A stretch of 31,234 bases of DNA from contig DATKCC010000104.1 in the NCBI GenBank assembly GCA_035513375.1, positions 1 through 31,234 of the forward strand. Direction: 5' to 3'. Every line of letters starts with the position of its first letter. Positions within the stretch are counted from its first letter, which is position 1. A program made the translations under genes and the position numbers. Source of the DNA: Thermoanaerobaculia bacterium. GTDB taxonomy: Bacteria; Acidobacteriota; Thermoanaerobaculia; Multivoradales; DATKCC01. The notes beneath the pieces were generated by a model, which ran no database searches, was not told where the DNA came from, and worked only from the letters and a program-made list of their open reading frames with translations. Of the stretch, positions 3,411-23,383 are shown in pieces.

Positions 3411-5816
3411 TCAGCTCCGCGGCGCGACCAGCTCCACCACCACCGGCCCCCGCGCACGACACATGCAGGCCAGGCGGTGCTCGCCGGGCGCGAGCGAGCA
3501 GAGCTCCTCCAGGGTCTCGGCCTCCGAGCCCTCGAGCGGGCCGAGGTGCTCGGCGCCGGAGAGGATGCGGATCGGGTCGCTGCCGCAGATCCCGGCGTGA
3601 CACTCGGCATTGATCGGCAGGCCGTGCTCCTCGGCGGCCTCGCAGATAGTCTGGCCGGGCTTGAGCGCCACTGTCTTGCCGGCGGACTCGAAGGTGACCT
3701 GGGGAGAGGCGGCGGCCGGAGCGGCGACCGCGGAGGCGGCGGCCGGAGCGGCGGTCGGGGACGCGGCAGCGGGAGCGGCCTCGGAGGCGCGCGGCGGCAC
3801 CGCCACCTCCCGTACGGCATCCGGGGCAGGCGCTGGCGCCGGTGCGAGCGCGGCTCCCGGAAGCGCTCCCCCCGTCGGCACGTAGCGTAGGGTCTCCCGC
3901 CCCAGGCGCAGCTCGTCCCCCGGCCGCAGGACGGCGGCCGTTTTGACCTTCACCCAGGTGCCGTTGACGCTCTTGAGGTCCTTGAGCTGGACGCGCCCCT
4001 CCCGGACCGAGACTGCGAAGTGCCGGCGGGAGAGGCTGGGATCGGCGGCGTCGAGGACCGCGTCCGGGGCGTCGCGGCCGAAGATCCTGGCCTCCTCCCC
4101 CACCGGGTGGCGCCCCTGCTCGGTCCCCCGATGATCGAAGTGGCGGAGCTCCCAACCCGCTCCGCTTCCCGGTTCGCCACCGTCTCCCGGCGCGGCCGCC
4201 TGCGCCAGCACCAGGAACTGCCGCCCGGCCCGGAACACCGCCCCGGCCGGAAGCTCGGTGTGCTCGCCCGGGAGGGCCCTGAGGAAGACGCCGGTCGCCC
4301 CGCCGTCATCCCGGAGCACCGGTCCTCCCTCCCCAGGGGCGATCGATGCGTGGCGCTCCGAGAGCGCAGCATCGTCGGGAAAGCGCAGGTCGGCGCCCTC
4401 GCCGCGGCCGATCGTGAACGCGACTCCCGAGGGGAGCGGGTACTCCGCCTCCTCGACTCCGCCCGGGAGAATCCGCACCAGGCGGGCCTCCTCCGGCTCC
4501 GGCAGCGCCTCCTCGCCCGGCGGGCCGGCGGGCTCCGCCGAGAGCTCCCCGGTCTCCCTGGGGATCGGCGCCGCACCCTCCGGCGTCCGGCCGCCCTCCT
4601 CCGCCGGCTCGGCGTCGCGCACCTCCACCCGGATCTCGGTCGCCCCGGCGACCTTCTGGGCCACGACCTCGGCCACCAGCACCCCGTCGCGCAGCGCGCT
4701 CTTGATGTTCCCCCGGTGTTTGACCTCCCGGTAGGTGGCGGGGTCGGCCGCGAAGTCGTCGGTCTCGAAATAGGCCTGCGACAGCATGTCGCCGACCAGG
4801 AACACCCCGGGCTGAACGGACTCGAGGTGGCGGGTGACCAGCATGCGCTTGCGCTCGCCGCCGGCGACCGGGACCATGGGGATCCTCAACTGGGCCAGGA
4901 AGCCCTCGGGGATATCCTCCCCGATGCAGGCGATGCAGCACTCCTTGCGGAACTCGAGGTGCACCGTCTCGTGAGGGCGCCCGTCGAGGCAGCGGCGGTC
5001 GACGCGGATCGCCAGGTACTCTTCACGGTCGTCCCCCACCACCACCGCGGTCGGCTCGGAGAGCGGATGGTAGCGGATGTTGCCGTGACCCAGGTAGGCC
5101 TCGAAGAAGACTTCGGCCAGGGCCTTCGAGACCCGCGGGAGGCGGTCCCCCCGGTAGCTCCAATAGACGGCGGTCGGATCCTCGGCCGCGACCTTGGCGG
5201 CGGAGATGGCGATCACCGCCTCGGCCGCCGAGGTCCCGCCGCCGACCACACAGGCCGGCCGGCCGAGGTAGAGGGCCGGGTCGCTCAGCCGGTAGGCGAT
5301 GCCGTCGGTGTTGCCCGGGATGTCGAAGCGCCGGGGCACCCCCCGGCCGATCGCGACGGCGACCGCGCGCGCGAGGAACCGCCGCTCCTCGCGGGCGTTG
5401 TGGTCCCAGACCAGCGCCCGCCACACCCCCTCGGCCTCGCGCTCGAGGCCGGTGAGCTCGAGCCCCACCTGGACCGGCACCTCGTGCTCCAGGTAGAACC
5501 GCTTCCAGCGCTGATGCATCTCGTCCTTGTCGATCGGCTGGAAGTGCAACTTGCGACAGAGCTCGCCGCCGTCGGGGAAGCGCATCCGGTCGCCGCCGCC
5601 GAAGTCGGGGAGGATGAGCTTGTCCTTCGAGTAGTCCCGGATCCGCTTGAGGACGTCGTCGTAGTCGATGACCAGGGCCGAGAGACCGAGCTCCCGGGCG
5701 CGGAACGCGGCCATGGTGCCGCCGGGTCCGCCGCCCACGACCAGCAGGTCCAGAACCTCCGGCAGAACCCGCGGCAGCTCCCGCATGATCGTGAACCCGG
5801 TCGTCTCCGGCGCCAT
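3411..5816 (-). CDS. TrxR-like FAD/NAD(P)-dependent oxidoreductase fused to two FHA domains and a C-terminal [2Fe-2S] ferredoxin domain
   Basis: LVVGGGPGG (FAD), VVGGGTSA and SYRGDRLPR (NADP-type site), GVFLVGD. FHA1 has IGRG..LSERHA; FHA2 has FGRD..LSRRHF..SVNGT. Ferredoxin motif CHAGICGSD...RLAC. AGGAG RBS about 7 nt upstream of ATG 5816. Confidence 0.9.
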   Translation of the reverse strand: MAPETTGFTIMRELPRVLPEVLDLLVVGGGPGGTMAAFRARELGLSALVIDYDDVLKRIRDYSKDKLILPDFGGGDRMRFPDGGELCRKLHFQPIDKDEMHQRWKRFYLEHEVPVQVGLELTGLEREAEGVWRALVWDHNAREERRFLARAVAVAIGRGVPRRFDIPGNTDGIAYRLSDPALYLGRPACVVGGGTSAAEAVIAISAAKVAAEDPTAVYWSYRGDRLPRVSKALAEVFFEAYLGHGNIRYHPLSEPTAVVVGDDREEYLAIRVDRRCLDGRPHETVHLEFRKECCIACIGEDIPEGFLAQLRIPMVPVAGGERKRMLVTRHLESVQPGVFLVGDMLSQAYFETDDFAADPATYREVKHRGNIKSALRDGVLVAEVVAQKVAGATEIRVEVRDAEPAEEGGRTPEGAAPIPRETGELSAEPAGPPGEEALPEPEEARLVRILPGGVEEAEYPLPSGVAFTIGRGEGADLRFPDDAALSERHASIAPGEGGPVLRDDGGATGVFLRALPGEHTELPAGAVFRAGRQFLVLAQAAAPGDGGEPGSGAGWELRHFDHRGTEQGRHPVGEEARIFGRDAPDAVLDAADPSLSRRHFAVSVREGRVQLKDLKSVNGTWVKVKTAAVLRPGDELRLGRETLRYVPTGGALPGAALAPAPAPAPDAVREVAVPPRASEAAPAAASPTAAPAAASAVAAPAAASPQVTFESAGKTVALKPGQTICEAAEEHGLPINAECHAGICGSDPIRILSGAEHLGPLEGSEAETLEELCSLAPGEHRLACMCRARGPVVVELVAPRS
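3706..3780 (-). repeat. 27-nt-period tandem repeat encoding 3x AAPAAAS in the Ala/Pro linker before the ferredoxin domain
   Basis: GAGGCGGCGGCCGGAGCGGCG is exact at 3706-3726 and 3733-3753, with a degenerate third copy at about 3760-3780. The protein reads EAAPAAASPTAAPAAASAVAAPAAASPQ. Confidence 0.8.
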
Positions 5817-5818
5817 CG

Positions 5819-6802
5819 TCAGCTCCTTCCTCCACCGGACAGGTCGATCTTCCCGCGCGCCAGCCGCGCGAGGACCGATCCGAGCTCGAGCTCGGAGCCC
5901 GCGGCGAGAACGGTCGCGGTGCCGGGCTCGAGGTCCACGCCGTCGATCCGCGTGCCGTTGGTGCTTCCGAGGTCGATCACGCGGACAGTGTCGGGCCCCA
6001 CCAGCAGCCGGGCGTGGGCACGGGAGAGAGTGGGGCTCTCGACCACGACGTCGGCTTCGGCGCCGCGGCCCACGAGGTGCTCCCCGGGGCCGAGGCGGTG
6101 GCGCGCCGCACCGCCTGCGGCGGTCTCGACCTCGAGGTAGAAGCCCTCCTCGTGCTCCTCGGTCCTCGCCGGAGCCGAGGCGGCCGCCGGCGGCTCGGCT
6201 CCCAGCTCGGGCAGCGGGAGCGAGAAGTCGGCGTCGACCACGGTTCGCCCGCCCGCCACCTCGGCGCTCGCGGCCGGCTCCGCTTCGCCGAGCGCCTCCG
6301 CCGGCAGCACGAAGTCCGCCGCGTCCTCGTACATCGTCCGACCCCGATCCTCGGCCGCCACCGGTTCCGCCAGGACCGGCGGCAGGACCGGCGGCTCGGC
6401 GTCGGCGAAGGTCCGCCCTGCGGCCGCCGCCGCGGCATCGAGCTCCGGCGGCGGCGCTTCCCCCAGGGCGAGGTCGAGCTCGGTGCGCCAGGGTCCGTCC
6501 CCCTCGATGGTCTGGAACACCAGCTCGCCCACCCCGGCCAGGTCGATCACCTCTAGGCGCTCCAGCTTCTCCGGCTCGCGCACCCGCAAGCCGGCCACGA
6601 AGGTACCGTTGCGGCTGCCCAGGTCCTCGATCAGGTAGCAGCCCTCGTCCGGGTCGAAGAAGACCCGCGCGTGCCGGGCGGAGACCGCCGAGTCGGGCAG
6701 CACCACGGCGTTGTCGGGGCTTCGCCCGAGGGTGGCCTCTTGGCCGATCACGACGCTCAGTCCGGCGAAGGTCCCGGTCCGGGAGAACAGGCGCGCACGC
6801 AC
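5819..6802 (-). CDS. Double-FHA-domain protein with an acidic Pro/Ala linker carrying R-T-x-x-D/E repeats
   Basis: N-terminal FHA LGRS..VSARHA..GSRNGT and C-terminal FHA VGRG..LSRAHA..GSTNGT. GTG start 10 nt after the upstream stop. Confidence 0.92.
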   Translation of the reverse strand: MRARLFSRTGTFAGLSVVIGQEATLGRSPDNAVVLPDSAVSARHARVFFDPDEGCYLIEDLGSRNGTFVAGLRVREPEKLERLEVIDLAGVGELVFQTIEGDGPWRTELDLALGEAPPPELDAAAAAAGRTFADAEPPVLPPVLAEPVAAEDRGRTMYEDAADFVLPAEALGEAEPAASAEVAGGRTVVDADFSLPLPELGAEPPAAASAPARTEEHEEGFYLEVETAAGGAARHRLGPGEHLVGRGAEADVVVESPTLSRAHARLLVGPDTVRVIDLGSTNGTRIDGVDLEPGTATVLAAGSELELGSVLARLARGKIDLSGGGRS

Positions 6803-6812
6803 GCTGAGATCC

Positions 6813-8447
6813 TCAGTCGCCCGCCGCCGAGCGGTAGACCACCAACCCGGCGTGGCGGCTTCGCCCGGGGTGGAACTGATGGCAGGTCACGCAGGCGCTC
6901 GACGCCCCGGCCGGAGTATGGCACTCCCGGCAGACGGCGATCGCCGGCAGGTTGTGGGTCTCGGCGGCGTCGGTCGGGTCGTCCTCCCCCTTGGGCTCGC
7001 CGGCGAGGATCTTCGGGATCGCGCCGTGGCACCCGAGGCACGACGGCAGCTGCACGATGTGGGCGCGGTGGTCGAACTCGGCCCGGATGAGCGTGCGCTG
7101 GTCCTTCTGCACCCGCTGGATGGCGGCGTCGGAGACGACGTGGCACTGCCGGCAGGGCTCGGTCAGGTCGAGCGCGAGCCGCTTGAGCTCCATCACCCGC
7201 TCCTCGGAGAGGCCTGGGGCGTAACCCGGCTGCCGGCCCGAGCCGGGCACGAACGGCGCCGTCGAGGCGGTGCCCTCACCGCGCTCGACCCGCTCTTCGG
7301 CCACGGCCAGGAGCTCCTCGAGCCGGCGGAGCTCCTCCTGGACCTCCGGGCCCGGGAGGCTCCGGAGCTCGGCCGCGCGCTCCCGGAGGGTCGCGATCGC
7401 CTCCCGGTAGAGGGCGTCCCCCCCGGCCAGGACCGTTCCCTCGTCGACCCCGGTCGAAAGCAGCGCGGCGAGGCCCAGGTCGCCGTAGAGGGTCGCCCGG
7501 ATCCGGCGCAGGTTCTCGAGGATCCAGGGATCCTCGTGGTAGACCGGCCGCTTGGCGACCGTACCGCCGGCCTCGCGAACCTCGTCGGGATTGGTGAAGA
7601 GAGCCCAGCGGACCCCCGGCCCCCACTCCCGCTGGAGCGCCGAGAGCGTCAACACCCCGGGGCGCGCGGGGTCGGCGGGATCACCGGCCGGCAGCCTCGG
7701 CGTGGCACTGGTCGCCGTGAGGTGGCAGGCGTCGCAATGGCGGTCGAAATCGAGCGGCCGAAACCCGCGCCCCCGGTCGTCCGGCTCGTGGCACTGGAGG
7801 CAGGAGCGCTCCGGGTTACCGAGACCCAGGCGCTTGGTCACCTCCGCGACATGGATCCGGTGGGGAAAACGGAGATTGGGATCATCCCGGAGACCGTCCC
7901 GGATGACCTCGACCTCCGGGTGGCCGCCGCCGAAGGAGCCGAAGGCGTGGCAGCCCGTACACCGGGCGTCGGGGACCCGGGTGAGCGCCGCCCGGCGCCC
8001 GCCGTGCTCGGCGTGGCAGGAAGCGCACGGCAGCTCCCGGCCGACCGCCCGGGCCGCGGCCGGGGTCGCCGTGGGGGCCTCCGCGCCGGCCGCGACGGGC
8101 GCCGGCCGGCGGTAGGCGTAGTGGGCGGCGTAGCGGTACTCTTCCGGCCCCTCCCCCACCCGCCCGTGGCACGCGAGGCACCCGGCGGCCGCCGGAGCCT
8201 CGAAGCCGCCGTGGCAGGCGCCGCAGTTGGCCTCGAAGTTGGCATGGCTCGAAGACAGCGGTCCGGGCGAGACCGGGGTCCGGTCGCCGAGGGCGAACGA
8301 GGCGCCGAGCCAGGCCAGGGCGCCCAGGCAGCCGGCGAAGCCGGCGCCCAGGAGCCAGCGCCGTGGGCTGCGGGTGACGTAGGCGCCGGCGACGGGTAGC
8401 CGCGCGCCGCCGAAGGAGCCTTTGCCGGGCCGTGCCTTCTTCGCCAT
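6813..8447 (-). CDS. N-terminally membrane-anchored decaheme c-type cytochrome
   Basis: Ten CxxCH motifs: CGACH, CLACH, CASCH, CTGCH, CLQCH, CDACH, CRQCH, CLGCH, CRECH, CVTCH. Hydrophobic segment WLLGAGFAGCLGALAWLGASFAL follows a basic N-terminus. Confidence 0.92.
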   Translation of the reverse strand: MAKKARPGKGSFGGARLPVAGAYVTRSPRRWLLGAGFAGCLGALAWLGASFALGDRTPVSPGPLSSSHANFEANCGACHGGFEAPAAAGCLACHGRVGEGPEEYRYAAHYAYRRPAPVAAGAEAPTATPAAARAVGRELPCASCHAEHGGRRAALTRVPDARCTGCHAFGSFGGGHPEVEVIRDGLRDDPNLRFPHRIHVAEVTKRLGLGNPERSCLQCHEPDDRGRGFRPLDFDRHCDACHLTATSATPRLPAGDPADPARPGVLTLSALQREWGPGVRWALFTNPDEVREAGGTVAKRPVYHEDPWILENLRRIRATLYGDLGLAALLSTGVDEGTVLAGGDALYREAIATLRERAAELRSLPGPEVQEELRRLEELLAVAEERVERGEGTASTAPFVPGSGRQPGYAPGLSEERVMELKRLALDLTEPCRQCHVVSDAAIQRVQKDQRTLIRAEFDHRAHIVQLPSCLGCHGAIPKILAGEPKGEDDPTDAAETHNLPAIAVCRECHTPAGASSACVTCHQFHPGRSRHAGLVVYRSAAGD

Positions 8448-8483
8448 GGTCGTAGGTCGCGCGCTCGCTCTCGCCGCCGGGCT

Positions 8484-9326
8484 TCAGAAGTACCACACCG
8501 CCAGTAAGTGGACCGCCACCAGGAGCAGCAGCACGAGCGACGGCGGGACGTGGGCGTAGAGCCACCAGCGCAGCGGCCGCTGAAGGGTGTAGTGAGCGTC
8601 GAGCTCGAGCTTGGTCCGCACCACCGAGCGCAGCTCGTCGAGTACCCCGCGCCCCTCGGCCGGGAGCCGGCCGGCCAGGTAGTCCAGCTCGCGCAGGCGG
8701 TTGGCGATGCCACCCGTGACGTCGGCGAAGTAGATCCACCGGAAGCGGGGCGCCGCCAGCAGCGGGGCGAGGCTCCGCCGGTAGAGGTCCCGCACCGGCC
8801 CGGGCGCCGCCGCCACCAGCTCCTCCGCGCGCCGGCGGAGGACCGCCGCGAGCTCGGGAATGCGCTCGTAGAGCACTTCGGTCGTGAGCGCGGAGGCGAG
8901 CACCCGAGGGAGCCACTTCCGGACCGCCACCCCGGCGAGGCCGCTCGCCGCCACCCACAGGCTGAGGCCCATCAGCCAGCGGTTCAGGCCGCTCCGGGGC
9001 CACTCGAAGCCGGCGTGCATCAGCACCAGCAGGGCGAACAGCGTGCCGCCGTAGACGTGGAGCTGGACCCAGGTCTGGGTCCGGCCGAGACCCGAGCGGA
9101 AGGTCCTCCGGCGGGCCGCGAGCGACCCGGCGCCCGCCAGCAGCAAGGTCGCCAGCGTGCCGTAGGTCAGCCCCCAGGGCGAGGCCGCTCGTGGCTCCGC
9201 CACCGTGAGGTTTAAGGCGTACACGAGCAGCAGGAGCGCCGCGGCGGCGAGGAAGCCCAAGAGCCATTCGGGCCGCTGAGCCCACCGGCCGGCGCCGGCT
9301 GCGAGCGTCGCCTTCGAGATCCTCAT
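8484..9326 (-). CDS. Polytopic membrane protein with four intramembrane His; probable di-heme b (ferric-reductase-like/cytochrome b) subunit
   Basis: Start reassigned to ATG 9326 (7 nt after the upstream stop; 280 aa). About 5-6 hydrophobic helices, with His in WVQLHVYGG, VLMHAG, LYAHVPPS and VAVHLLAV. Confidence 0.75.
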   Translation of the reverse strand: MRISKATLAAGAGRWAQRPEWLLGFLAAAALLLLVYALNLTVAEPRAASPWGLTYGTLATLLLAGAGSLAARRRTFRSGLGRTQTWVQLHVYGGTLFALLVLMHAGFEWPRSGLNRWLMGLSLWVAASGLAGVAVRKWLPRVLASALTTEVLYERIPELAAVLRRRAEELVAAAPGPVRDLYRRSLAPLLAAPRFRWIYFADVTGGIANRLRELDYLAGRLPAEGRGVLDELRSVVRTKLELDAHYTLQRPLRWWLYAHVPPSLVLLLLVAVHLLAVWYF

Positions 9327-9333
9327 CGCGGCC

Positions 9334-11007
9334 TCATCGCCGGAGCAGCCCTTCGAACTCCTCGAGGCTCCCGATCCGGTAGGCGCAGCCGTTGGGGCAG
9401 CTCTCGACACAGGCGGGCCCTCCCTCCCTCGTGTAGCAGAGGTCGCACTTGCTCGCCACCAGTCGGTCCTTGCCCCGGAGCCCCTCGGGGATCATGTCGT
9501 CCGGCCAGGTCGCGCCGGTCTCGTGCATCACGATGGCGTCGTAGGGGCAGGCACGGGCGCAGCTCCCGCAGCCGATGCAGATCGTCTCGTCGACCGCCAC
9601 CACCTGGCCGAAGCCGGTCCGGTGGATGGCGCCCGTCGGGCAGCCCACCAGGCAGACCGGATCACGGCAGTGGTAGCAGGCGCTCGCGATCTGGAGGTTG
9701 GCGAGCTTGTCCCCTTCGCGGATGAAGCGGGCGCGGCCGCCGTGGGTCCGCTCGCAGGCCCGGACGCAGTCGTCGCACCGGGTGCAGGCCGCCAGGTCGA
9801 TGACCAGCATGGCGCTCCCCTGCACCAACCCGGTGTCGACGGCGGTCTCGAGCAGCTCGGCGTGGGCCAGGTCCCGGCGGCTGAAGCCGGTTTCCCGGAT
9901 GCGGTCGACCGCCGAGCGCCAGAGCCGCTTCTCCACTTCCGGGAACTGGCGGAGCATCTGAACGAGCTCGCCCCGAGGCAGGCGCACGAGCTCGGCATAC
10001 TCGACCGAGGTGGCGCTCGCGGTCCAGCCCCGGGAGTCGTCGACCAGGAGCTCGACCTCGCCCAGGGTCATCCCCTTCGACAGGTAGTTGACCGTGATCT
10101 CACCCTGGTCGAGGCGCTGGGTGAGCTGGAGGAATCCGGAGCGCACCAGGAAGAGCCCGTCGACCGGCTCGCCTTCGCGGGTCAGCGCCTCTCCGGGCTC
10201 GAGCGAGACTAGGTCCACGACCTCCCGGATGGCGGCGAGGAAGACCGGCGGGCAGCCGTGGAAGAGGGGTGTCGCGTCGAGCTGGCCGGCGAGGGAGCGG
10301 CGGCGGTAGGCCGCGTCCAGGCGCTCCTTGAGGGCCTCCGACTTGCGCCGCATCGCCCGGAGCGCCGGCATCCGGAGGTGGACAAGGGTGGCCTCGGAAG
10401 CGGTCCGGGCGGTGACCGACTGGGGCCAGCCGCTCATCGCGCCGATCTCGCCGAAAAGCTCGCCGGGCCCCAGGGTCTCGCGGCTCCCGCGCGGCAGGTC
10501 GAAGTCGAGGGCGGCGAGGAAGGTGATCTCCCCCGGCTTGGCCGCGCGCTGCGCCAGGACGGTCCCCCGCGGCAGCGAGCCGGTGTCTCCGCCATCGTCC
10601 AAGCCCTCCTCCCCCCCCGGCGGTCGCGCCAGGGAGGCGAGCCGCGGCACCTCGAAGAAGCCGGTCCGGTGGAGGTCGAAGATCGGCTGGTCCGCCGCGC
10701 CGCCCGCTCCGAGGCTCACCTCGACCTCGCCTTCGACGACGAAGAAGGCGAGGTCGATATAGGCCCCCTCCTCGAACAGCACGGCCCCCGGGCGCCAGCG
10801 GCCGATCGAGACGTCCGGCCCGATCCGCTCGAGGAAGGCATCGTCGTAGGCGTCGAAGAGCGCGATCCCCCGGAGGGTCGCGAGCGACGGCTGCTCGGAG
10901 AGCGACTCGAGCCCGGTGCGCTCGCCGAACGACGACCACCGGTCACGGTAGAGCTCGCGCCGCTTGAGGAAGGTGCGGCCGACCTCTGGCTCGGCGTGAT
11001 CCGTCAT
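9334..11007 (-). CDS. Tandem cNMP-binding (CAP_ED-like) domains fused to a four-cluster [4Fe-4S] domain of the DmsB/NrfC/HybA type
   Basis: Start ATG 11007 overlaps the upstream stop (ATGA; 557 aa). cNMP-type segments LFEEGAYIDLAFFVVEGEV..GELFGEIG and LTREGEPVDGLFLVRSG..LGEVE. Cys motifs CTRCDDCVRAC, CYHCRDPVCLVGCP, CIGCGSCARACP, KCDLC...PACVESCP. Confidence 0.92.
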   Translation of the reverse strand: MTDHAEPEVGRTFLKRRELYRDRWSSFGERTGLESLSEQPSLATLRGIALFDAYDDAFLERIGPDVSIGRWRPGAVLFEEGAYIDLAFFVVEGEVEVSLGAGGAADQPIFDLHRTGFFEVPRLASLARPPGGEEGLDDGGDTGSLPRGTVLAQRAAKPGEITFLAALDFDLPRGSRETLGPGELFGEIGAMSGWPQSVTARTASEATLVHLRMPALRAMRRKSEALKERLDAAYRRRSLAGQLDATPLFHGCPPVFLAAIREVVDLVSLEPGEALTREGEPVDGLFLVRSGFLQLTQRLDQGEITVNYLSKGMTLGEVELLVDDSRGWTASATSVEYAELVRLPRGELVQMLRQFPEVEKRLWRSAVDRIRETGFSRRDLAHAELLETAVDTGLVQGSAMLVIDLAACTRCDDCVRACERTHGGRARFIREGDKLANLQIASACYHCRDPVCLVGCPTGAIHRTGFGQVVAVDETICIGCGSCARACPYDAIVMHETGATWPDDMIPEGLRGKDRLVASKCDLCYTREGGPACVESCPNGCAYRIGSLEEFEGLLRR

Positions 11008-15410: not shown

Positions 15411-15460
15411 GGTCGTCTCCTATTTGACATGAATTCGAAAGCTACGAACCCGTGTCCTTA

Positions 15461-15490
15461 AGTGTAACCGACTGCACGGAGAATGCTCAA
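15461..15490 (-). promoter_or_regulatory. Probable internal sigma70-type promoter (TTGAGC-N18-TACACT) driving the lower half of the cluster
   Basis: Minus-strand TTGAGC (15490-15485) and TACACT (15466-15461) lie in a 91-nt, locally AT-rich gap upstream of ATG 15410. Confidence 0.5.
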
Positions 15491-15501
15491 GCCGCCGGCG
15501 G

Positions 15502-16164
15502 TCATCGCCCGGACTCCCATTCTGGCATCAGCCGGTCGAAGGCGTCGACCAGCGCCCGGTCGACCGCCTGGGCCGGCCCGGCTTGGTCGAAGGCCACCTC
15601 GTCTCCCCGGTACTGGACCCCGGCGCTCATCACCCGGGTGACGCTGCGGCCGGTGCCCTCCCGGCACAGGCTGGGCGCGCCCTGGCGGTGGAGGCAGAGC
15701 CGTACCGAGGCCCGGTAGGCCCAGCGCCTGCCTCCCGCGACGCCGCTCACCCGGTCCCGCGTAACCCCCATCGAGTCCAGGCTGCCGTGGGCGATCCATT
15801 CGGCGCCCGTCGCTTCGTGCCAGCGGTCGAGCCCCGCGTCCCCGGAAGGCTCCTCCGCCGACCCCCGCTCACGGAGCCAGTAGCCCCCGACCGCCTCCCG
15901 CACCGACGGTGCGAGCTCACGCTCCTCCAGGGTCTCGAAGGCGCCGCTGTCGGCGAGCATCTGGGACAGCCGCCCCCGCAACCCCATGCCGAGGCGCCTT
16001 TCCCGCCAGGCCTCCTCCTCGAGCGTCGTCTCGAGGCCGACCACCAACACGGTGGGTCGGCCGCCTCGGCCGGCGGGCTCCGGCGGGCTCACGGCCCGGA
16101 CCCCGGTCGCGCACGCGGCGAGGGCCGCCGCCCCGGCGATGGCGAGTGCGGCGCGCCCGGTCAT
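15502..16164 (-). CDS. CsgG/HfaB-like lipoprotein
   Basis: Lipobox LAAC. LGMGLRGRLSQMLADSGAFETLEER..GAEWIAHGSL pattern parallels the other CsgG-like genes in the cluster. Confidence 0.72.
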   Translation of the reverse strand: MTGRAALAIAGAAALAACATGVRAVSPPEPAGRGGRPTVLVVGLETTLEEEAWRERRLGMGLRGRLSQMLADSGAFETLEERELAPSVREAVGGYWLRERGSAEEPSGDAGLDRWHEATGAEWIAHGSLDSMGVTRDRVSGVAGGRRWAYRASVRLCLHRQGAPSLCREGTGRSVTRVMSAGVQYRGDEVAFDQAGPAQAVDRALVDAFDRLMPEWESGR

Positions 16165-16177
16165 GGCACCCCCGCCA

Positions 16178-17320: not shown

Positions 17321-17384
17321 CTCCCATCCGTATCGTGGTTCGCGGGCTCGGCGGATTTCTGCCTCGGCAAGGCCATGGGTCCCG

Positions 17385-18077
17385 TCACTCCCCCGAGTCT
17401 CCGGCCGGGGGACCGGCGGGCTTGAACCGCCGCATCAGGGTCTCGACCGCCGCCGCCAGGGCCGCGTCGGTGGCGAGCCCCACCGTCGACCGGGCGAAGG
17501 CCACCTCGCTCTCGGTGCCGAGAACGTCGCCCACGCGCCGCACCTCGCCCGTGCCCGACGCCGGGAGGTACTCGGAGGTCTCGACGTCGACCAGCCGGAT
17601 CTGGATCGAGATCCGGGTCTCGGCCGTGGCGGTGCCGAGCCGCTGGAGGCCGAAGTCGTAGACCTCGCCGTAGAGGACGTAGCGCGCCCCCAGAAGGCGG
17701 CCGTGCCGGACCGCGGACTCGGCCGAGACCGCCCCGGTCGAGGACACCCACTGCCGGTCGATCAGGTCGGCCACCACCTCGGGCTTCTCCTCGACGAAGC
17801 GGAAGCGACCGGTGTCGAACAGGTGGTCGACCAGCAGGTTGTGGACGCCAAGGCCGACGCTGCGCTCGGCGAGCTGGGGGTAGCGCGCGCTCGTCGCCTC
17901 GGTGAGCCCCAGGGGGAGGACGGCGATCGGGATCGGGGGCGCATCGGCCGGAATCGCGGGGCGCCCCGTGGGACCTTCCTCCGGCTCGGCGGACCCCTCG
18001 GCCACCGCTGCATTCGGGCCGCCGGCGCACCCCGCGGACAGGATGAGGACGGCCATCAGGGTCACGAGCCTGGTCAT
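17385..18077 (-). CDS. CsgG/HfaB-family lipoprotein
   Basis: Lipobox-like LSAGC. IAVLPL..GLGVHNLLVDHLFDTGRFRFVEEK..AVRHGRLLGARYVLYGEV..IQIRLVDVET is the clearest CsgG-type match of the four. ATGA overlap with the kinase stop. Confidence 0.82.
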   Translation of the reverse strand: MTRLVTLMAVLILSAGCAGGPNAAVAEGSAEPEEGPTGRPAIPADAPPIPIAVLPLGLTEATSARYPQLAERSVGLGVHNLLVDHLFDTGRFRFVEEKPEVVADLIDRQWVSSTGAVSAESAVRHGRLLGARYVLYGEVYDFGLQRLGTATAETRISIQIRLVDVETSEYLPASGTGEVRRVGDVLGTESEVAFARSTVGLATDAALAAAVETLMRRFKPAGPPAGDSGE

Positions 18078-19861
18078 CTGCTTCCCCCTCTCCCCTTCGG
18101 CGGCTCGCCGGTAGCGCTCAGTGCGAGGACCTGGACGGCAGCGCGACGACCCGCCTCCGCGGCGGCCTCGGCGAGGGCGGTGAGCTCGCTGGGGGCGAGC
18201 TTCCCCTGGCTGTCGCCGGTGCCCACTTCGACGGTGCCGGCCCCCAGGAGCCGCCCGTTGGCCCCGTCGTACGCGCGCAGGTCGAGCACGGCCCGGCCGG
18301 TGTAGAAGCGGCCGACGCTCGGCTGCGCCTCCCCCTCGAAGCGCCCCACCACCACGACCGAGGCGCGGTAGCGCCGGCCGGCCTCGGCGATCCGGCCCGG
18401 ACCGGCGCCGGCGAGGTCGAGCCCCGAGGAGCCGGCACCGGGAGCGACCGCTTCATGGCCGCCGGCGATCAGCTCGTCGAGGAGCGCGCTCTCGGCCGCC
18501 CGGGCCGCGCCGGCCGGCTCGCCGGCGACCGCCAGCAGGAAGCGAGGGGAGCCGGCCGGCGCCGGGGCCGGACCGGGATTCGGCGGGCCGGGCGCCGGCA
18601 CGGGCGCCGAGGCGGTCTCGGTGGCCGAGTCTCCGGTCCCACCGGTCGACGGCAGCGGGAGCGGAATGGCGTCGGCTGCCGTCGCGCCGAGCGCGCCGTT
18701 CGGCGCGCCGGTCGCCGCCCCCTCGTCCCCGGGCTCCCCTGCCTCCGGCTCACCGTGGTCCGCGGCCGCGACCGGGTCCGGGTCGAGCCCGACCTCGAGA
18801 GCCTCGGGCTCCCCGCCCGCATCCGGCCGGAGGGACCAGAGCGCCAGCGCCACCGCCGCCACCAGGACGGCGGCCAGCGCGATCCACGAGGCGGTCCTCG
18901 GCGGGAGCCGGACCGCCGTCCGATAGGTGCCTCCCGCGGAGTCGCCGCCGGCGGGCGGCGAGCTCGGGACGACCCGCGTGGGCACCGCCAGGACCGTGGG
19001 CGCCAAGCGGGCCGGGTCCACCTGCTCATCGCCGGGCCGCCCGGTCCCGGCCAGGCCCGAGCGGACGGCCCGGAGCTCGGCGATTACCGGCGCGAGGCCG
19101 GGGTAGCGGGCGTCCGGGTCCTTGGCCAGGCAGCGGTCGATCACCGCCGCCAGCCGTTCCGGGCATTCGGGCCAGGCCGCCGGCAGCGGCGCGTGCACCT
19201 CGTGGGCTATCTGGTAGAGCACCGCCGACAGGCTTTCGCCTTCGAACGGCCGCCGGTAGGAGAGCAGCTCGTAGGCCAGGACGCCGAACGAGAAGATGTC
19301 CGCCCGCCGGTCCACGGGCTCGCCCCGGAGCTGCTCTGGCGGCAGGTAGCCGGCGGTCCCCATGGTCATCCCGGTCCGGGTGAGCTGGTCTTCAGCCGAC
19401 AGCAGCTTGGCGATGCCGAAGTCCATGATCTTGATCCGGCCGCCGTCGACCACCCGCATGTTGGCGGGCTTGATGTCGCGATGGACGATCTCCCGCGAAT
19501 GGGCGTAGTCGAGGGCTTCGGCGATCTCGATCAACCATTCGAGGCGGCGCTCGCGATCGACCGGGTCGCGCCGGGCGATGACCCGGTCGAGGTCCTCCCC
19601 CGGGAGAAACTCCTGGACCAGGTAAGAGCGCCCGCCTTCGGTGCCGAAGTCGAAGACGGTGGTGATGCCGGAGTGCTGGAGGCCGGCGGCGATCTCCGCC
19701 TCACGAAGGAACCGCGCCCGGAGCTCCGGGTCGGGGGCCGAGAGAGTCTTGATCGCGACCGGGCGCTTCAGGTCCGGGTCGCGGCCCCGATAGACCGTCC
19801 CGAACCCGCCTTCGCCGATCTGCTCTTGAACCTCATACTTCCCGAAGCTCTTCGGCGTCAT
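18074..19861 (-). CDS. Transmembrane Hanks-type Ser/Thr protein kinase with a periplasmic alpha/beta domain
   Basis: GEGGFG, VAIK, HRDIKPAN, DFG, GTAGYLPPE, DIFSFG. TM helix WIALAAVLVAAVALALWSL. Start ATG 19861, alternative TTG 19879. Confidence 0.94.
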   Translation of the reverse strand: MTPKSFGKYEVQEQIGEGGFGTVYRGRDPDLKRPVAIKTLSAPDPELRARFLREAEIAAGLQHSGITTVFDFGTEGGRSYLVQEFLPGEDLDRVIARRDPVDRERRLEWLIEIAEALDYAHSREIVHRDIKPANMRVVDGGRIKIMDFGIAKLLSAEDQLTRTGMTMGTAGYLPPEQLRGEPVDRRADIFSFGVLAYELLSYRRPFEGESLSAVLYQIAHEVHAPLPAAWPECPERLAAVIDRCLAKDPDARYPGLAPVIAELRAVRSGLAGTGRPGDEQVDPARLAPTVLAVPTRVVPSSPPAGGDSAGGTYRTAVRLPPRTASWIALAAVLVAAVALALWSLRPDAGGEPEALEVGLDPDPVAAADHGEPEAGEPGDEGAATGAPNGALGATAADAIPLPLPSTGGTGDSATETASAPVPAPGPPNPGPAPAPAGSPRFLLAVAGEPAGAARAAESALLDELIAGGHEAVAPGAGSSGLDLAGAGPGRIAEAGRRYRASVVVVGRFEGEAQPSVGRFYTGRAVLDLRAYDGANGRLLGAGTVEVGTGDSQGKLAPSELTALAEAAAEAGRRAAVQVLALSATGEPPKGRGGSR

Positions 19862-20006
19862 GTCGTCTCGCAGCTCCAAAGCTGTCTCGCCCCTGTCCTC
19901 CCAACGCTCATCGAGTCATCCCACTCTCATTCGCTCCTGCTTCCACCCGGGCCGCTGGTCGAGCCGCTCCGGCGAGAACCGCGGCTTCGATGTACTCCCG
20001 GGCTCC

Positions 20007-21599
20007 TCAGAACTTCCTCCGGAGCTCGACCCGCACGCCGTAGAGGTTCTCGCGGTCCGCCAGCCAGCCGTGCATGGCGTCGGCGCGGACGATCCAGGCG
20101 TTGGTCACCGGCTTCTGCCAGCGGATCCCGAGGGCGTACTCGTCGCCCAGGGCCTCGGTCACGCCGCCGCCGATCCTCTGGACCACCGCCCCCTCGATCA
20201 CGATCTGCTGATCGAGGGCGAAGAGGTACTGGACGCCCAGGGCGCCGCCGAAGGCGTCGTGGGCGCGGTCGTCTAGCTTGGGGTAGCCGGTCAGGCCGTC
20301 GGTCTCGAAGTTGATGCCGGTGTTCTTGAGCACCCCGCCCGCGTCCGCCGCCCGCACCAGCGCCTGGGGCCGGTCGAAGCCCGCGAACAGGTTCAGGTAG
20401 GGAACCAGGGTATACGGCCGGGAGGTCATGAGGTAGCTCTCGACCAGCACGAGCGCTCCGTCGGCGGTCTTCTCGCGCCCCGGAACGGGCTCCTGCCCGA
20501 GGTTCGCGATCAGGCGTACGCTGTTGGCGACGCGGCCGCCGTAGCGGCGCGAGAATGCGACCGTCAGGTTGTGGTAGTCGAGCTCGTCGAGGCCGGCGTC
20601 GACGAAGCCGTAGCCGAGCTCCCAGAAGCCCTCGTTGGCCTCGACGAAGCCGGCGACGCCGAACAGGTCGGCGGTGTCGGCAAGGGTGCCGTCGGCCCGG
20701 GTGACGGCGGCGGTCGTCACCTCGTCGAAGGCGGCGAAGAAGGTCAGGTCGATGTTGCTCGCGCCGAGGGCGTTGCTGCTGAAGGCGGGGATGGTGAAGG
20801 CCCCCCCGGTGACCGCGTCCTCGGTCCACACCCCGTTCTGGGTGAAGAGCGGGAAGAGGCCGACCGCGAAGGGCAGGTCGATCTGGTTCTCCCGGCCGCT
20901 CATCCCGCGGAAGATCGGCCCCACCTCGCCCTCGAAGAACAGGGTGTCGAGGTCGAGGTCGAGCTCCTCCTCGAAGCCTTCATTGCGCCCCGAGATGTCG
21001 TAGCGGGTGAAGCGGCCGTCCCTCTCCGTCGGGCGGACGAATAGGTGCAGCCGCTCGGTCGCGGTGAGCTTGAAGTCGAGCTCGAGGTTGAGCCGCGTGG
21101 CGACCGTCGCCTGGTAGGACTTCCCCGAGGCGTCGGCGGCGCCGAAGTCGTTGTAGGCGGCGGCGGTTCGCAGGTCGCCGTAGACCATGAGGTGGGGCGA
21201 GGCCGGGTTCTTGGCGCCGAACCACGCCTTGGCCGGCTCGAGCGGTCCTTCGCGGTAGAGCGGGCGGCCGAGCTCGAGCAGCGGGCGAGCCGTCCGGTTG
21301 AGGTGCTTGTCGCCGTAGATGGCGAGCTGCGCCGCCGGGTCGTACGGCTCGTGGGCGTAGGTCGGATCGGGCTTGAACACCCGCCGGTCGTGCTCGACGA
21401 GCTCGGCGCCCGCGGGCAGCTCCGGCCCCTCCTTCTCCTCGCCGTGGGCGGAGGTCTCGGCGGCGCCGGGGGCAGCCTCGGGGCTCGCTCCGTCGGTGAC
21501 CGCGGCCGCCGGGGCCGTGCCGGCCAGGATCGCTGCGAGCACCAGGGCGAGAGCGGCGAGGAGGACTGGTACGGACGGGATCGTCGGTCGCTGGATCAT
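20007..21599 (-). CDS. Large outer-membrane beta-barrel (porin-like) protein
   Basis: Start reassigned to ATG 21599 behind a GAGGGGGAGAG RBS (530 aa). Signal peptide, many amphipathic strands, C-terminus YGVRVELRRKF. Confidence 0.75.
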   Translation of the reverse strand: MIQRPTIPSVPVLLAALALVLAAILAGTAPAAAVTDGASPEAAPGAAETSAHGEEKEGPELPAGAELVEHDRRVFKPDPTYAHEPYDPAAQLAIYGDKHLNRTARPLLELGRPLYREGPLEPAKAWFGAKNPASPHLMVYGDLRTAAAYNDFGAADASGKSYQATVATRLNLELDFKLTATERLHLFVRPTERDGRFTRYDISGRNEGFEEELDLDLDTLFFEGEVGPIFRGMSGRENQIDLPFAVGLFPLFTQNGVWTEDAVTGGAFTIPAFSSNALGASNIDLTFFAAFDEVTTAAVTRADGTLADTADLFGVAGFVEANEGFWELGYGFVDAGLDELDYHNLTVAFSRRYGGRVANSVRLIANLGQEPVPGREKTADGALVLVESYLMTSRPYTLVPYLNLFAGFDRPQALVRAADAGGVLKNTGINFETDGLTGYPKLDDRAHDAFGGALGVQYLFALDQQIVIEGAVVQRIGGGVTEALGDEYALGIRWQKPVTNAWIVRADAMHGWLADRENLYGVRVELRRKF

Positions 21600-21613
21600 G
21601 GTCTCTCCCCCTC

Positions 21614-23383
21614 TCACTCGACCGCGAACTCGACGGTGTAGGGGTGGATGTCCACCATCCACTCGTTCATCGCCCGCTCCATGTCCTTGGTGGCGCCCAC
21701 GAACTTCATGAAGTAGAGCGGTTCGGCCCGGCTCCTCATCCGGACCGCCAGGCGGTAGAGCCCCGGTGTCTCGAGCAGCCTGCCGGGCACCGAGTACTTC
21801 GCGTCCTTGCTCCCCAGCGGCGGGATGCTGCGCTTCTCCATGCGGATGAACGGCGGGTGGTTGAGGATGCTCGTCGGGACGTTGGCCGGCCGGATGAACG
21901 GGATCTGGTCGGCGTCGAACGGCACCGGCAGGTACATCTCCCGGTCGGTGCCCTTCAGGTTGGTGGTCAGGAACTTGCTCTGGAGGTTGAAGAGCTGGCC
22001 GTCGTGGGGGAGCGTGCCGGCCTGGACGTCGAGCGAGTGGAGGTCGGCCATGTCGCCGTGGCTGTCGACGTAGCCCGATTCCCAGACCGTCTCGCCGGCG
22101 GGGTCGATCAGCGCCACGTTGAGCCAGATCTCCGGCTGGGCGCCGAGGGAGCCCGAGGGCATGTTGTGCCCCTTGTTGAGGTTGGTGACCCGGTAGTGGA
22201 AAGCGAGGTCCCGGCCGGTCCTGGGCTGGCGGCGGAAGTACGGGCCGTCGATCCGCGAGCTCGACTCCATGAGGTCGTGGCGGAGCGCGGCCTTCTCTTC
22301 GATCTTGCGCAGGTTCTCGTCGACGATCAGGCGCGCTTCCACCCGGTCGTCCTCGTAGGCCCAGGGCTCAGGGAAGTCGATCTCGACCGCGCCCTCAGCC
22401 ACCCGGTCCTCGAAGTCGGGCGTGCCCCAGCCGGCCCGGTAGTCGAAGGCCAGCCAGTCCCTTGCGGAGAAGCGCCGGGCGGCCGGGTGGTGGGGGAAGA
22501 TCCCGGGATGGGTGATCGGGTAGCCGGGGCCGACGAAGGCGTGGTTGGTCCGCTTCCTCGCGTCGTTGACCGTGCGGCCGTTGACGATCGCCGCGGGGCC
22601 GGTGGCGTAGCCGCTCGGCTGGCCCGGCCGGGTGCTCATGTGGCAGTCCTGGCAGGTGATCCCCTCGGCCAGGGCGGGTGAGGCCCGGTACTCGTCCCAC
22701 ACCGTCTCGAGCTTGATCCCGGGGTGGACCGCCACCTGGTGGCAGGAGAGGCAGAACTCCGACTGCCCGAGCTGCTCGAATCGGATCCCCTGGCGGTGGA
22801 TGTCGAGGCCCATCTCCCCCTCGGTCGCCGCCACGTTGTATGCCTCCCGGTTCTCGATCACCTCGGCCACTCCCGCGCCGCCGATCGAGCCGTAGACCGG
22901 CTCGCGAATGTCGCCGCGGAGGATCCGCCGCTCGCCGTTGACCTTGCCGTAGTACTCGTCCACCCGGTGGCAGGTGACGCAGGTCACCCCCTCGCGCGAG
23001 ACCTGCGAGCGCTCCCACAGCGGCATCGCCCGCGACTCGCCGAGCGAGGTGCTCACCGTGGCGTGGCAGCGCATGCAGAAGTAGCCGACCGTGCCCTGGG
23101 AGAGGTCGTTAATCCGCTGCTCGAACTTGTGGAACATCGGCGAGATCGAGGCGTAGGCGTGCGAGGAGAACCGCCACTCCTCGTACTGGGCCGGGTGGCA
23201 GGCGGCGCACTCCGAGGCCGACGGGAACAGGGTCTCGGCGAGGATCGCGGCGTGGGGGTCGGCGGCAACGTCTGCCGCCGCCCGCGGCTCGGGCGGCGCG
23301 TCCTGCTCCTGCGCCCCAACGGCCAGGCCGGCCGCGGTGAGCGCGAGCAGGCAAAGGCAGACGAGGCTGAACCCAGCTCTCAT
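21614..23383 (-). CDS. Secreted pentaheme c-type cytochrome (c554-like N-terminus) with a C-terminal beta-rich domain
   Basis: Start ATG 23383 behind an AGGAG RBS (589 aa). Signal peptide. CAACH, CMRCH, CVTCH, CLSCH, CQDCH, with extra His candidates (SSHA, TNHAF, KGHNMPSG). Confidence 0.9.
   Translation of the reverse strand: MRAGFSLVCLCLLALTAAGLAVGAQEQDAPPEPRAAADVAADPHAAILAETLFPSASECAACHPAQYEEWRFSSHAYASISPMFHKFEQRINDLSQGTVGYFCMRCHATVSTSLGESRAMPLWERSQVSREGVTCVTCHRVDEYYGKVNGERRILRGDIREPVYGSIGGAGVAEVIENREAYNVAATEGEMGLDIHRQGIRFEQLGQSEFCLSCHQVAVHPGIKLETVWDEYRASPALAEGITCQDCHMSTRPGQPSGYATGPAAIVNGRTVNDARKRTNHAFVGPGYPITHPGIFPHHPAARRFSARDWLAFDYRAGWGTPDFEDRVAEGAVEIDFPEPWAYEDDRVEARLIVDENLRKIEEKAALRHDLMESSSRIDGPYFRRQPRTGRDLAFHYRVTNLNKGHNMPSGSLGAQPEIWLNVALIDPAGETVWESGYVDSHGDMADLHSLDVQAGTLPHDGQLFNLQSKFLTTNLKGTDREMYLPVPFDADQIPFIRPANVPTSILNHPPFIRMEKRSIPPLGSKDAKYSVPGRLLETPGLYRLAVRMRSRAEPLYFMKFVGATKDMERAMNEWMVDIHPYTVEFAVE

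Follow-up and report, generated by a model that had tools for sequence, protein, structure and literature searches.

Do the fifteen genes that follow one another on the minus strand of positions 3411–23383 of a contig from a soil metagenome-assembled genome of the Thermoanaerobaculia (Acidobacteriota) (GenBank assembly GCA_035513375.1, contig DATKCC010000104.1; the window analysed is the stretch of 31,234 nucleotides (nt) from position 1) form one electron-transfer system, and is that system new? A reading made from the DNA letters alone, hereafter the sequence-only reading, took them for a single undescribed trans-envelope electron conduit under phosphothreonine (pThr) and cyclic-nucleotide-type control. 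Comparison with related genomes divides them differently. Eight of the genes, g01, g02 and g10–g15, are a conserved block found in at least six phyla, and the redox core of this block is, going by published feature descriptions, that of the PCC4/ptd family, which had already been named in silico. We regard it as moderately likely that the locus is a PCC4/ptd member with a pThr-linked architecture and an NAD(P)H-fed chain, g03–g09 being a separate cassette.

Gene frames were set by the G+C content of codon positions (GC3), lists of longest open reading frames (ORFs) being unreliable at the 72–76% G+C of the window. This resulted in 15 minus-strand genes within 3411–23383, numbered in order along that strand from g01 (21614–23383) down to g15 (3411–5816). 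Two longest ORFs were rejected as Arg/Pro-rich wrong frames: 13106–14773, where GC3 indicated g09 (13106–13768) and g08 (13765–14916), and 17317–18030, where it indicated g04 (17385–18077). The GC3 frames bear out the common orientation of the 15 genes and the five overlapping start/stop junctions of the sequence-only reading (−4, −1, −4, −4 and −4 nt, out of 14 junctions); its statement that most other junctions are under 40 nt holds for six of them (2–36 nt), the three longer ones measuring 145 nt (g02/g03), 64 nt and 91 nt. A contig from the source sample confirmed contiguity over 3472–19296. The genes, together with a kinase gene beyond this range, are:

g01, 21614–23383, minus strand: secreted pentahaem cytochrome whose C-terminal half carries no haem, PtdA-like
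g02, 20007–21599, minus strand: outer-membrane beta-barrel, predicted to be of the 18-strand porin type, PtdB-like
g03, 18074–19861, minus strand: receptor Ser/Thr kinase with a kinase domain, one transmembrane (TM) segment and a periplasmic C-terminal domain; first gene of the insertion
g04, 17385–18077, minus strand: lipoprotein with a CsgG/LpoB-type fold
g05, 16178–17320, minus strand: secreted protein whose Cys-rich N-terminal part is joined by an acidic linker to a beta-rich C-terminal part with Phe as its last residue; candidate outer-membrane barrel
g06, 15502–16164, minus strand: lipoprotein, distant paralogue of g04 and g09
g07, 14916–15410, minus strand: small secreted protein with C-terminal Phe; putative small barrel
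g08, 13765–14916, minus strand: secreted protein with a CsgG-like domain at the C-terminus
g09, 13106–13768, minus strand: lipoprotein paralogous to g04, closing the insertion and overlapping the g10 start with its stop
g10, 11004–13109, minus strand: periplasmic octahaem cytochrome with two c554-type tetrahaem modules, a doubled PtdD-like protein
g11, 9334–11007, minus strand: cytoplasmic protein combining two degenerate cNMP-type domains with four predicted [4Fe-4S] clusters, PtdE-like
g12, 8484–9326, minus strand: five-TM membrane protein, probably di-haem b; PtdF-like, corresponding to the PCC4 inner-membrane protein
g13, 6813–8447, minus strand: membrane-anchored decahaem cytochrome with a conserved cytoplasmic N-terminal tail, PtdG-like
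g14, 5819–6802, minus strand: cytoplasmic protein with two FHA domains
g15, 3411–5816, minus strand: TrxR-type FAD/NAD(P)H flavoprotein followed by FHA, FHA and a [2Fe-2S] ferredoxin domain
Soluble Ser/Thr kinase, 1830–3392, plus strand: convergent on g15, the conserved kinase neighbour of the cluster, lying beyond 3411–23383

Relatives of g11 are encoded on at least 566 genome stretches (pattern scan, one genome per species), and the best 80 of these were used for locus comparison. Within the same order, full-length g11 orthologues of 55–62% identity were present in 12 of 40 genomes. The order g01-g02-g10-g11-g12-g13-g14-g15 was found in all nine order-level neighbourhoods fetched, with nothing like g03–g09 inside, and two near-complete long-read contigs carry the same eight genes followed by the convergent kinase. 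Wherever the contig extends far enough, the 80 best loci retain g10/g11-g12-g13-g14-g15, and haem numbers are retained too, in Acidobacteriota (where the relatives of the window are Thermoanaerobaculia), Ignavibacteria, Bacteroidota, KSB1, Zixibacteria, Gemmatimonadota and Nitrospirota; carriers outside the Thermoanaerobaculia include Vicinamibacterales, Holophagae, Ignavibacteria, Chitinophagales, Rhodothermales/Salinibacter, KSB1, Zixibacteria, Gemmatimonadota and Nitrospirota. The gene-neighbourhood search proposed with the sequence-only reading thus found conserved linkage of g01, g02 and g10–g15, not scattered homologues; the claim of one 15-gene system was not supported by the same comparison, g03–g09 occurring only in close relatives. 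All named matches to the FHA-bearing variant were metagenome-assembled genomes, none being a cultured carrier. The block has two versions of its outer end, one with g01-g02 upstream as in the window and another, in Ignavibacteria, Bacteroidota, KSB1 and Zixibacteria, with HbpS-like, 584-amino-acid (aa) and 1242-aa multihaem/LVIVD proteins and a short tetrahaem form of g10. This alternative end precedes the g11–g15 core in L057:1712–21029 and also in loci L039, L051, L053, L056, L062 and L064. Distant g12 relatives lay on short contigs, from which no classical ptd locus was recovered.

At the cytoplasmic end of the block, g11, g14 and g15 are encoded without signal peptides. The Pfam matches of g15 are Pyr_redox_2/3, two FHA domains and Fer2; GxGxxG motifs are present, C739, C744 and C784 are invariant, Asp747 occurs in 42 of 42 sequences and C773 in 92%. 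Residues 739–747 (window 3576–3602) read C-x4-C-G-S-D, with the Asp at the position of the third Cys of plant-type ferredoxins; C773 may be the replacement [2Fe-2S] ligand. At window position 3706, in the Ala/Pro-rich linker before Fer2, the source-sample contig is 27 nt shorter, an in-frame length polymorphism of a low-complexity linker.

The g11 protein, encoded directly upstream of g12 with a gap of 7 nt, matches PF00027 (E = 1e-29) and PF13247 (E = 2e-9) and has four Cys clusters with 16 invariant Cys; a search with it gave more than 1000 homologues at E ≤ 1e-20 among 8000 candidates scored. In all ten diverse homologues aligned, the phosphate-binding Arg of the cNMP pockets is replaced, by an invariant Gln in pocket 1 (...SGWPQSVTA) and by Trp in pocket 2. 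Control by cyclic nucleotides, as the sequence-only reading had it, is therefore unlikely, and the degenerate domains probably bind a ligand other than cAMP or cGMP or serve only as docking modules.

In g12 the motifs are W86-x3-H90-x13-H104, S128-G129-x-x-G132 and W255-x3-H259-x13-H273; H90, H104 and H259 are invariant in a 33-sequence alignment, and H273 is at least 90% conserved. The AlphaFold2 (AF2) model (pLDDT 89.5) has five TM helices and a helical domain of ~100 residues between TM4 and TM5. On our own reading, R72-R74 would mark the TM2–TM3 loop as cytoplasmic, so that H90 and H259 would lie towards the inner side of the membrane and H104 and H273 towards its periplasmic side, a placement that fits the geometry expected of two stacked haems b. 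There was no PF01794 match at E ≤ 5, nothing relevant in a profile search against the PDB and no Foldseek match better than E = 0.2, so g12 was kept out of the ferric-reductase domain family; the name 'ferric reductase-like' for proteins of this type derives from automatic names and papers. Proteins of the g12 type form a family of 3542 representatives at 50% identity (E ≤ 1e-3).

Natural fusions join several of these parts. A 798-aa fusion of Pyr_redox, two cNMP domains and Fer4 is encoded on another contig of this genome (C399) and in many relatives, the reductase part of the C399 protein being 31% identical to that of g15. The protein P0379 (L128:693–3263) fuses cNMP-Fer4 to a g12-type membrane protein, and P0263 and P0304, of similar length and with the membrane-protein match at the C-terminal end, are probably the same fusion. 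FHA-TM-multihaem proteins homologous to g13 also exist. Contig C399 (L122:1–3194) carries a paralogous second inner-membrane module, in which the 798-aa fusion is followed by a g12-like membrane protein. Its relatives in L123 and L124 continue with FHA-TM-multihaem and HbpS-like proteins, L123 with a FecR-like protein and L124 with 584-aa and LVIVD-multihaem genes.

The three cytochromes contain 23 CxxCH motifs (ten in g13, eight in g10 and five in g01), and with four FHA domains, the fusion of cNMP-type domains with four [4Fe-4S] motifs, the four-His membrane protein and the TM kinase they belong to the parts that the sequence-only reading had listed, and all of these are present. Motif numbers are largely kept among orthologues, with five in 28 of 28 sequences of the g01 type, ten in 59 of 61 of the g13 type and, among 25 of the g10 type, eight in 17 and seven in eight. 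In g13, a TM segment at residues 35–53 anchors the protein and the haem motifs are split 6+4. Residues 1–28 (window ~8364–8447) contain a tail motif, KG-x-F-[GS] ... L-P-V-[AS]-x-x-Y, that is kept across phyla, which suggests a docking site for a cytoplasmic partner. The g10 protein has a signal peptide, an internal repeat, eight motifs arranged 4+4 and a match to Cytochrome_C554 (E = 8e-22). L057 encodes a one-module form of 341 aa with a c554 match; the remaining loci of the Ignavibacteria/Bacteroidota type match g10 only in part. The model of the DmsE-family decahaem cytochromes, TIGR03508, matched g10 alone and below threshold (20 versus 192 bits), with no match to g13; none of the ten proteins compared with NCBIfam (g05–g13 and g15) reached a cut-off. 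Searched by sequence against the PDB, g01, g10, g13, g05 and g07 showed c554/c552-type N-terminal similarity or nothing.

The g01 protein has a signal peptide, a Cytochrome_C554 match and the pentahaem cytochrome c552 5ze8 as its best PDB sequence match. All five CxxCH lie within the first 250 of 589 residues, and the haem-free stretch of ~300 residues after them has invariant polar positions, among them N401, G405, H406, P409 and G411. Its gene is followed 14 nt downstream by g02, an order always kept in relatives. The g02 protein has a signal peptide and had no Pfam match; its AF2 model (pLDDT 66) has about 19–20 strands. Foldseek matches of this model, with E values between 5e-13 and 1e-7, were MOMP, OprD/Occ, AlgE and chitoporin, and MtrB, a 26-strand barrel, was outside the top 50. 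From this model the barrel is predicted to be of the 18-strand OprD/AlgE/MOMP type; it gives no indication of a haem wire running across the outer membrane as in MtrAB, and the last step may be a periplasmic reaction on a small substrate. Of the three barrels proposed in the sequence-only reading, g02 is supported by its fold, and g05 and g07 are plausible, with no family or structure match. Atlas neighbours of g01, g02 and g12 form large clusters, commonest in Pseudomonadota and Planctomycetota and with the same automatic names; in one Atlas cluster a cytochrome is fused to a related barrel.

PF00498 matches two stretches each in g14 and g15, with E = 2e-32 for g14. In 41 g14 sequences, S41/H44/N65 of the first domain and R246/S260/H263/N282 of the second are at least 95% conserved; Arg27 of the first is present in the window and less than 95% conserved. 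The g14 domains thus keep pThr-pocket residues and are predicted pThr readers. The kinase at 1830–3392 (Pkinase E = 3e-42) has no TM segment; in Thermoanaerobaculia loci its counterparts, 45–61% identical, likewise converge on g15. Of 38 loci with sufficient flanking sequence, 18 have a kinase no more than 3 kb downstream of g15, a count that is no test as the loci are related; kinases in this genome number about one every 150 kb. Two arrangements occur: the convergent soluble kinase of Thermoanaerobaculia and, in seven Ignavibacteria/Bacteroidota loci, a co-directional trio of PP2C, kinase (PEGA) and TPR/CsgG-like protein after g15 on the same strand. FHA domains and a Ser/Thr kinase do travel with the cluster, in support of the sequence-only reading, although the conserved kinase is the soluble one on the plus strand rather than the embedded TM kinase to which regulation had been assigned.

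If the cofactors are loaded as the motifs predict and the proteins form a complex, electrons from cytoplasmic NAD(P)H would enter the FAD of g15, pass to its own [2Fe-2S] domain and from there to the four [4Fe-4S] clusters of g11. They would then cross the inner membrane through two haems b held by the H-x13-H pairs of g12, reach the membrane-anchored decahaem g13 and, by way of the octahaem g10 in the periplasm, arrive at the pentahaem g01, which would act beside the 18-strand-type porin g02 on an acceptor. This carrier order, already that of the sequence-only reading, is supported by topology, cofactor motifs and the very strong conserved linkage of the redox genes, and by the natural fusions of reductase with cNMP-FeS protein, of cNMP-FeS protein with membrane protein and of FHA domain with anchored cytochrome. 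The low-potential, NAD(P)H-type character of the cytoplasmic partners and the absence of any quinone-site family favour outward flow. The FHA domains of g15 and g14 with the adjacent soluble kinase would constitute a pThr-dependent layer, probably controlling the assembly of the cytoplasmic input end or the electron flow through it. The g03–g09 cassette may feed the same FHA layer while standing outside the conserved machine.

Within that cassette, g03 has a kinase domain (Pkinase E = 2e-51) and a TM segment at residues 321–339. The start of g04 overlaps the g03 stop; its product has the lipobox LSAGC and matches PF03783 (37.9 bits) and PF13036 (30.1 bits), and g08 matches PF03783 at 22 bits (cut-off 20.8). 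The PF03783 match covers only positions 6–153 of the 210 of the model, and the window contains no curli genes. By BLASTP, g09 is related to g04 (E = 3e-20) and g06 to g04 (E = 7e-4) and g09 (E = 2e-4), with lipoboxes ALAAC in g06 and AVAAC in g09. The four CsgG-like proteins of the sequence-only reading were all recovered in this way, g04 and g08 by PF03783, g09 and g06 by paralogy. A profile of the lipoprotein family matched solved CsgG in the PDB at E = 4e-3, and also 5t10/5t11, which we take to be PelC. The suggestion that the periplasmic domain of g03 shares this lipoprotein fold was unsupported by sequence (BLASTP E = 2.3, hhalign probability 0.3%). Both g05 and g07 have signal peptides and a C-terminal Phe; g05 had no Pfam, NCBIfam or PDB match and no homologue in 40 relatives, and g07 had no family or PDB match. 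Summed contig depth over window 19395–20060, coinciding with the conserved kinase domain of g03, is ~10× that of the rest in all four runs, probably from kinase genes of other organisms rather than from a repeat.

Only closer relatives (L110, with g11 75% identical, L111 and L126) have the seven genes at this position and in this order; the genes are absent from L030 (64% identical), from nine order-level relatives and from 80 further loci. By contrast, g03-g07-g08 or g07-g08 occur without cytochromes in L119, L120, L121 and L125, beside CHAT-domain proteins, an FHA-sigma54 activator or unrelated genes; a g03-type kinase is often present there, and full-length g03 homologues adjoin g07-g08. 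The g07 gene is always paired with g08, also away from cytochrome clusters, and a search of 5.8 billion proteins found no more than 22 homologues of g08. In our reading, g03–g09 are a self-standing envelope-signalling cassette, inserted in one lineage between ptdB and ptdD. A functional link to the redox cluster lies somewhere between unlikely and possible; it is kept open by the 4-nt overlap of g09 with g10 (g09 likewise overlaps g08 by 4 nt), by retention over 54–80% identity and by separate kinase/CsgG-like neighbours in another phylum.

Several points count against an NAD(P)H-fed PCC4/ptd member with a separate cassette. The family is known in silico only, both papers calling its function unknown. 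A barrel of the 18-strand type is expected to be too narrow for a cytochrome, so that electrons may not leave the cell, and haem b binding by g12 is predicted from its motifs. The cytoplasmic tail of g13 has no conserved phospho-acceptor Thr, Ser/Thr occurring at one position in part of the sequences. The trio in seven loci may mean that association with CsgG-like proteins is functional and not mere insertion. The wording used for PtdC, flavohaemoprotein-like (bioRxiv 10.1101/2023.11.21.568154), suggests a flavoprotein class different from that of g15, which was compared by description only, and inward flow, from an extracellular donor to quinone, was proposed by He et al. (PMC5566968). In a first rival explanation, g01 would itself be a periplasmic terminal reductase, and its substrate, small and soluble (an oxyanion of nitrogen or sulfur, a chelated metal or a quinone-like shuttle), would enter through g02, with no electrons crossing the outer membrane through protein; we hold this possible but doubtful. 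The likeness of g02 to the substrate channels OprD/Occ, AlgE, chitoporin and MOMP would fit, as would the invariant polar residues in the ~300 haem-free residues of g01 and the presence of the system in Rhodothermales/Salinibacter, Vicinamibacterales and Gemmatimonadota, which are largely aerobic. The placing of PtdA in the NrfA COG (Elbon et al.; bioRxiv 10.1101/2023.11.21.568154) points the same way, but g01 has no catalytic-haem signature such as CxxCK, its invariant His (seven) and Met would suffice for all five haems to be six-coordinate, no substrate is indicated, and the Atlas cluster with a cytochrome fused to a related barrel speaks against a route confined to the periplasm. Inward uptake, in which the cytochromes would collect electrons from external Fe(II) or Mn(II) and deliver them via g12 to the quinone pool or the cytoplasm, is the hypothesis of He et al., who found PCC4 in Zetaproteobacteria and in Hyphomicrobium of Fe/Mn-oxidising settings (PMC5566968); a related Ferrigenium cluster is expressed during Fe(II) oxidation, but also under all other conditions tested (bioRxiv 10.64898/2026.01.22.701106). 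For the present variant we consider it very unlikely, the cytoplasmic partners being an NAD(P)H-type flavoprotein and low-potential Fe-S clusters, with no quinone-site family such as NrfD or NapC/NirT present. Reduction of NAD(P)+ by Fe(II) is strongly uphill, inward electron movement opposes the membrane potential, and the hosts of this variant are, from general knowledge, heterotrophs rather than lithotrophs.

Other explanations concern what the signalling genes are for. An integrated 15-gene machine, with lipoproteins and small barrels as structural parts of an outer-membrane conduit (for example a ring plus barrel) and g03 as its dedicated sensor, would account for the g02-g03...g09-g10 order kept at 54–80% identity in independent samples, for the 4-nt g09/g10 overlap, for the kinase and CsgG-like protein after the cluster in Ignavibacteria/Bacteroidota and for the fact that the only two PF03783 matches in this genome are both in the window. 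Metatranscriptome contigs of 300–800 nt from a relative 95–98% identical fall on g02–g06 and g14, pieces of both parts; with DNA carry-over possible they are weak evidence of expression and no proof of co-transcription. Such a machine is nevertheless unlikely: the seven genes are absent from every other family locus inspected, g03-g07-g08 and g07-g08 are found without cytochromes beside CHAT proteins or the FHA-sigma54 activator, and the largest gap, 145 nt, sits at the g02/g03 boundary. A further reading, rather unlikely in our estimate, is that an envelope-sensing cassette of receptor kinase, CsgG/LpoB-fold lipoproteins and small barrels gates an NAD(P)H-driven electron export valve through the FHA domains, pThr acting on the reductase, and that the kinase, PP2C and CsgG-like neighbours in Ignavibacteria/Bacteroidota represent the same logic evolved twice. 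If true, it would make this system the first transmembrane electron conduit with post-translational gating, and a valve left open would dissipate the membrane potential. That the chain instead reports the periplasmic or extracellular redox state, with the kinase/FHA layer as its output, seems highly improbable; the signalling domains (four FHA, two cNMP-like, two kinases) and the HbpS-like genes adjoining relatives of the system could be so explained, but 23 haems c, two haems b, four [4Fe-4S], a [2Fe-2S] and FAD, if all are loaded, far exceed known redox sensors, and FHA domains inside the reductase fit enzyme regulation, not output.

For the favoured reading, an NAD(P)H-fed PCC4/ptd variant with a pThr-linked input end, the interest lies in the input. 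The family is very widespread, and this variant makes the input end explicit as a cytoplasmic NAD(P)H flavoprotein and Fe-S chain with no quinol site, which its domain content would tie to Ser/Thr phosphorylation. If the path holds, many soil, sediment and marine bacteria, some of them of aerobic lineages, own a regulated, quinone-pool-free route for cytoplasmic reducing power across the inner membrane, with a bearing on extracellular electron transfer, metal and humic reduction and possibly extracellular production of reactive oxygen. For annotation, the 15 genes are best read as two modules.

Elsewhere in the window, the minus-strand gene at 3–1616 has a DegV-family domain at residues 302–533, preceded by ~300 residues whose start resembles a response-regulator receiver by eye and which gave no Pfam match. 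Two long overlapping minus-strand ORFs at 24732–27132 had no Pfam match, and the gene of a ParA/MinD-type ATPase (26837–27649, plus strand) overlaps the start of an ABC1/UbiB-type kinase gene (27646–29322, plus strand). In agreement with the sequence-only reading, Pfam gave no haem-maturation, cyclase or phosphatase match among the window genes scanned; other contigs of the same genome carry a Cytochrom_C_asm gene (C335) and a PP2C gene (C477). A scan for promoters and terminators in this 73% G+C DNA found nothing.

Comparison with the published descriptions of known systems indicates that the redox core is not undescribed, contrary to what had been claimed. PCC4 (He et al., 2017; PMC5566968) comprises a porin, periplasmic 4-, 5- and 10-haem cytochromes and a further redox gene, with a PF13247 Fe-S gene upstream of a five-TM protein that has W-x3-H-x13-H on TM3 and TM5 and SGxxG on TM4. 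The cluster ptdABCDEFG was named by Elbon, Stewart and Glass, who report ptdAB transcripts, state that its function 'remains completely unknown' and name 5ze8 as the solved relative of PtdA (bioRxiv 10.1101/2023.11.21.568154). With ptd the window shares the pentahaem protein with an extra C-terminal domain and 5ze8 as relative, a porin encoded next to it, tetrahaem modules of the c554 type, a 4Fe-4S protein with cNMP-type domains, a membrane protein named 'ferric reductase-like' and a decahaem cytochrome; both also have an FAD/NAD(P) oxidoreductase, though orthology of the two is doubtful. The claim that porin-cytochrome clusters carry no cNMP domains is thus contradicted by a published putative cluster. 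With PCC4 subgroup II it shares the porin, the 5- and 10-haem cytochromes and the PF13247 gene directly upstream of the five-TM protein, all of whose motifs are present in g12. It differs from ptd in that the tetrahaem protein is doubled to eight haems (published four), in that the oxidoreductase is TrxR-type, fused to two FHA and a [2Fe-2S] domain, and stands at the end of the cluster rather than third, and in the added 2×FHA gene and Ser/Thr kinase, with seven unrelated genes splitting the cluster. The ptd hosts are marine Proteobacteria, Nitrospirales and Planctomycetes, whereas those here are Acidobacteriota and others from soil, sediment and groundwater. From PCC4 it differs in the same respects and in the likely direction of flow, the NAD(P)H flavoprotein/Fe-S input pointing the opposite way to the quinone of He et al., whose paper has no mention of FHA, kinases, CsgG or Acidobacteria; FHA has zero occurrences in Elbon et al., where kinase terms were not searched for.

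Among other systems, the 'NHC' cluster of Ferrigenium straubiae has an FHA-nonahaem cytochrome beside five-TM and [4Fe-4S] proteins; its authors state that FHA with multihaem cytochromes was previously unreported and propose quinone reduction during Fe(II) oxidation (bioRxiv 10.64898/2026.01.22.701106, section 6.3.2). It resembles the window in its membrane-anchored multihaem, five-TM, [4Fe-4S] and cytosolic FHA parts and corresponds to the fused paralogous system on C399, but its FHA is fused to the cytochrome, it has nine haems, and no porin or pentahaem pair is described. In the literature searched, FHA with a multihaem cytochrome was noted only for this related protein, and searches on cNMP/FHA/multihaem combinations and on peat and bioanode cytochrome surveys gave nothing relevant. 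The likeness to MtrCAB, PioAB and MtoAB is one of concept only, multihaem cytochromes being encoded beside an outer-membrane barrel: the top 50 fold matches of g02 are all 18-strand-type porins, g13 is TM-anchored with 6+4 haem motifs, DmsE/MtrA-family models score far below cut-off, and the predicted input is a cytoplasmic flavoprotein and di-haem b protein, not a quinol dehydrogenase. Members of the FRD superfamily (NOX, FRE, MsrQ with flavin reductase) likewise lead from an NAD(P)H flavin through two haems b on H-x13-H pairs of two helices to an acceptor across the membrane, but g12 has five TM helices instead of six and no PF01794 or significant fold match, only the H-x13-H spacing being shared. 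In the insertion, g04 and g08 score above the Pfam threshold for CsgG, and LpoB is a further match of g04, but these proteins are ~220 aa with a partial CsgG model, and no curli, Pel or peptidoglycan-synthase genes lie nearby, in contrast to the CsgG, LpoB and PelC systems. New with respect to both the PCC4 and the ptd papers are the TrxR-type flavoprotein-FHA-FHA-[2Fe-2S] fusion, the separate 2×FHA protein, the doubled tetrahaem protein and the adjoining soluble kinase, while the splitting of the cluster by a kinase/CsgG-fold cassette is particular to this window.

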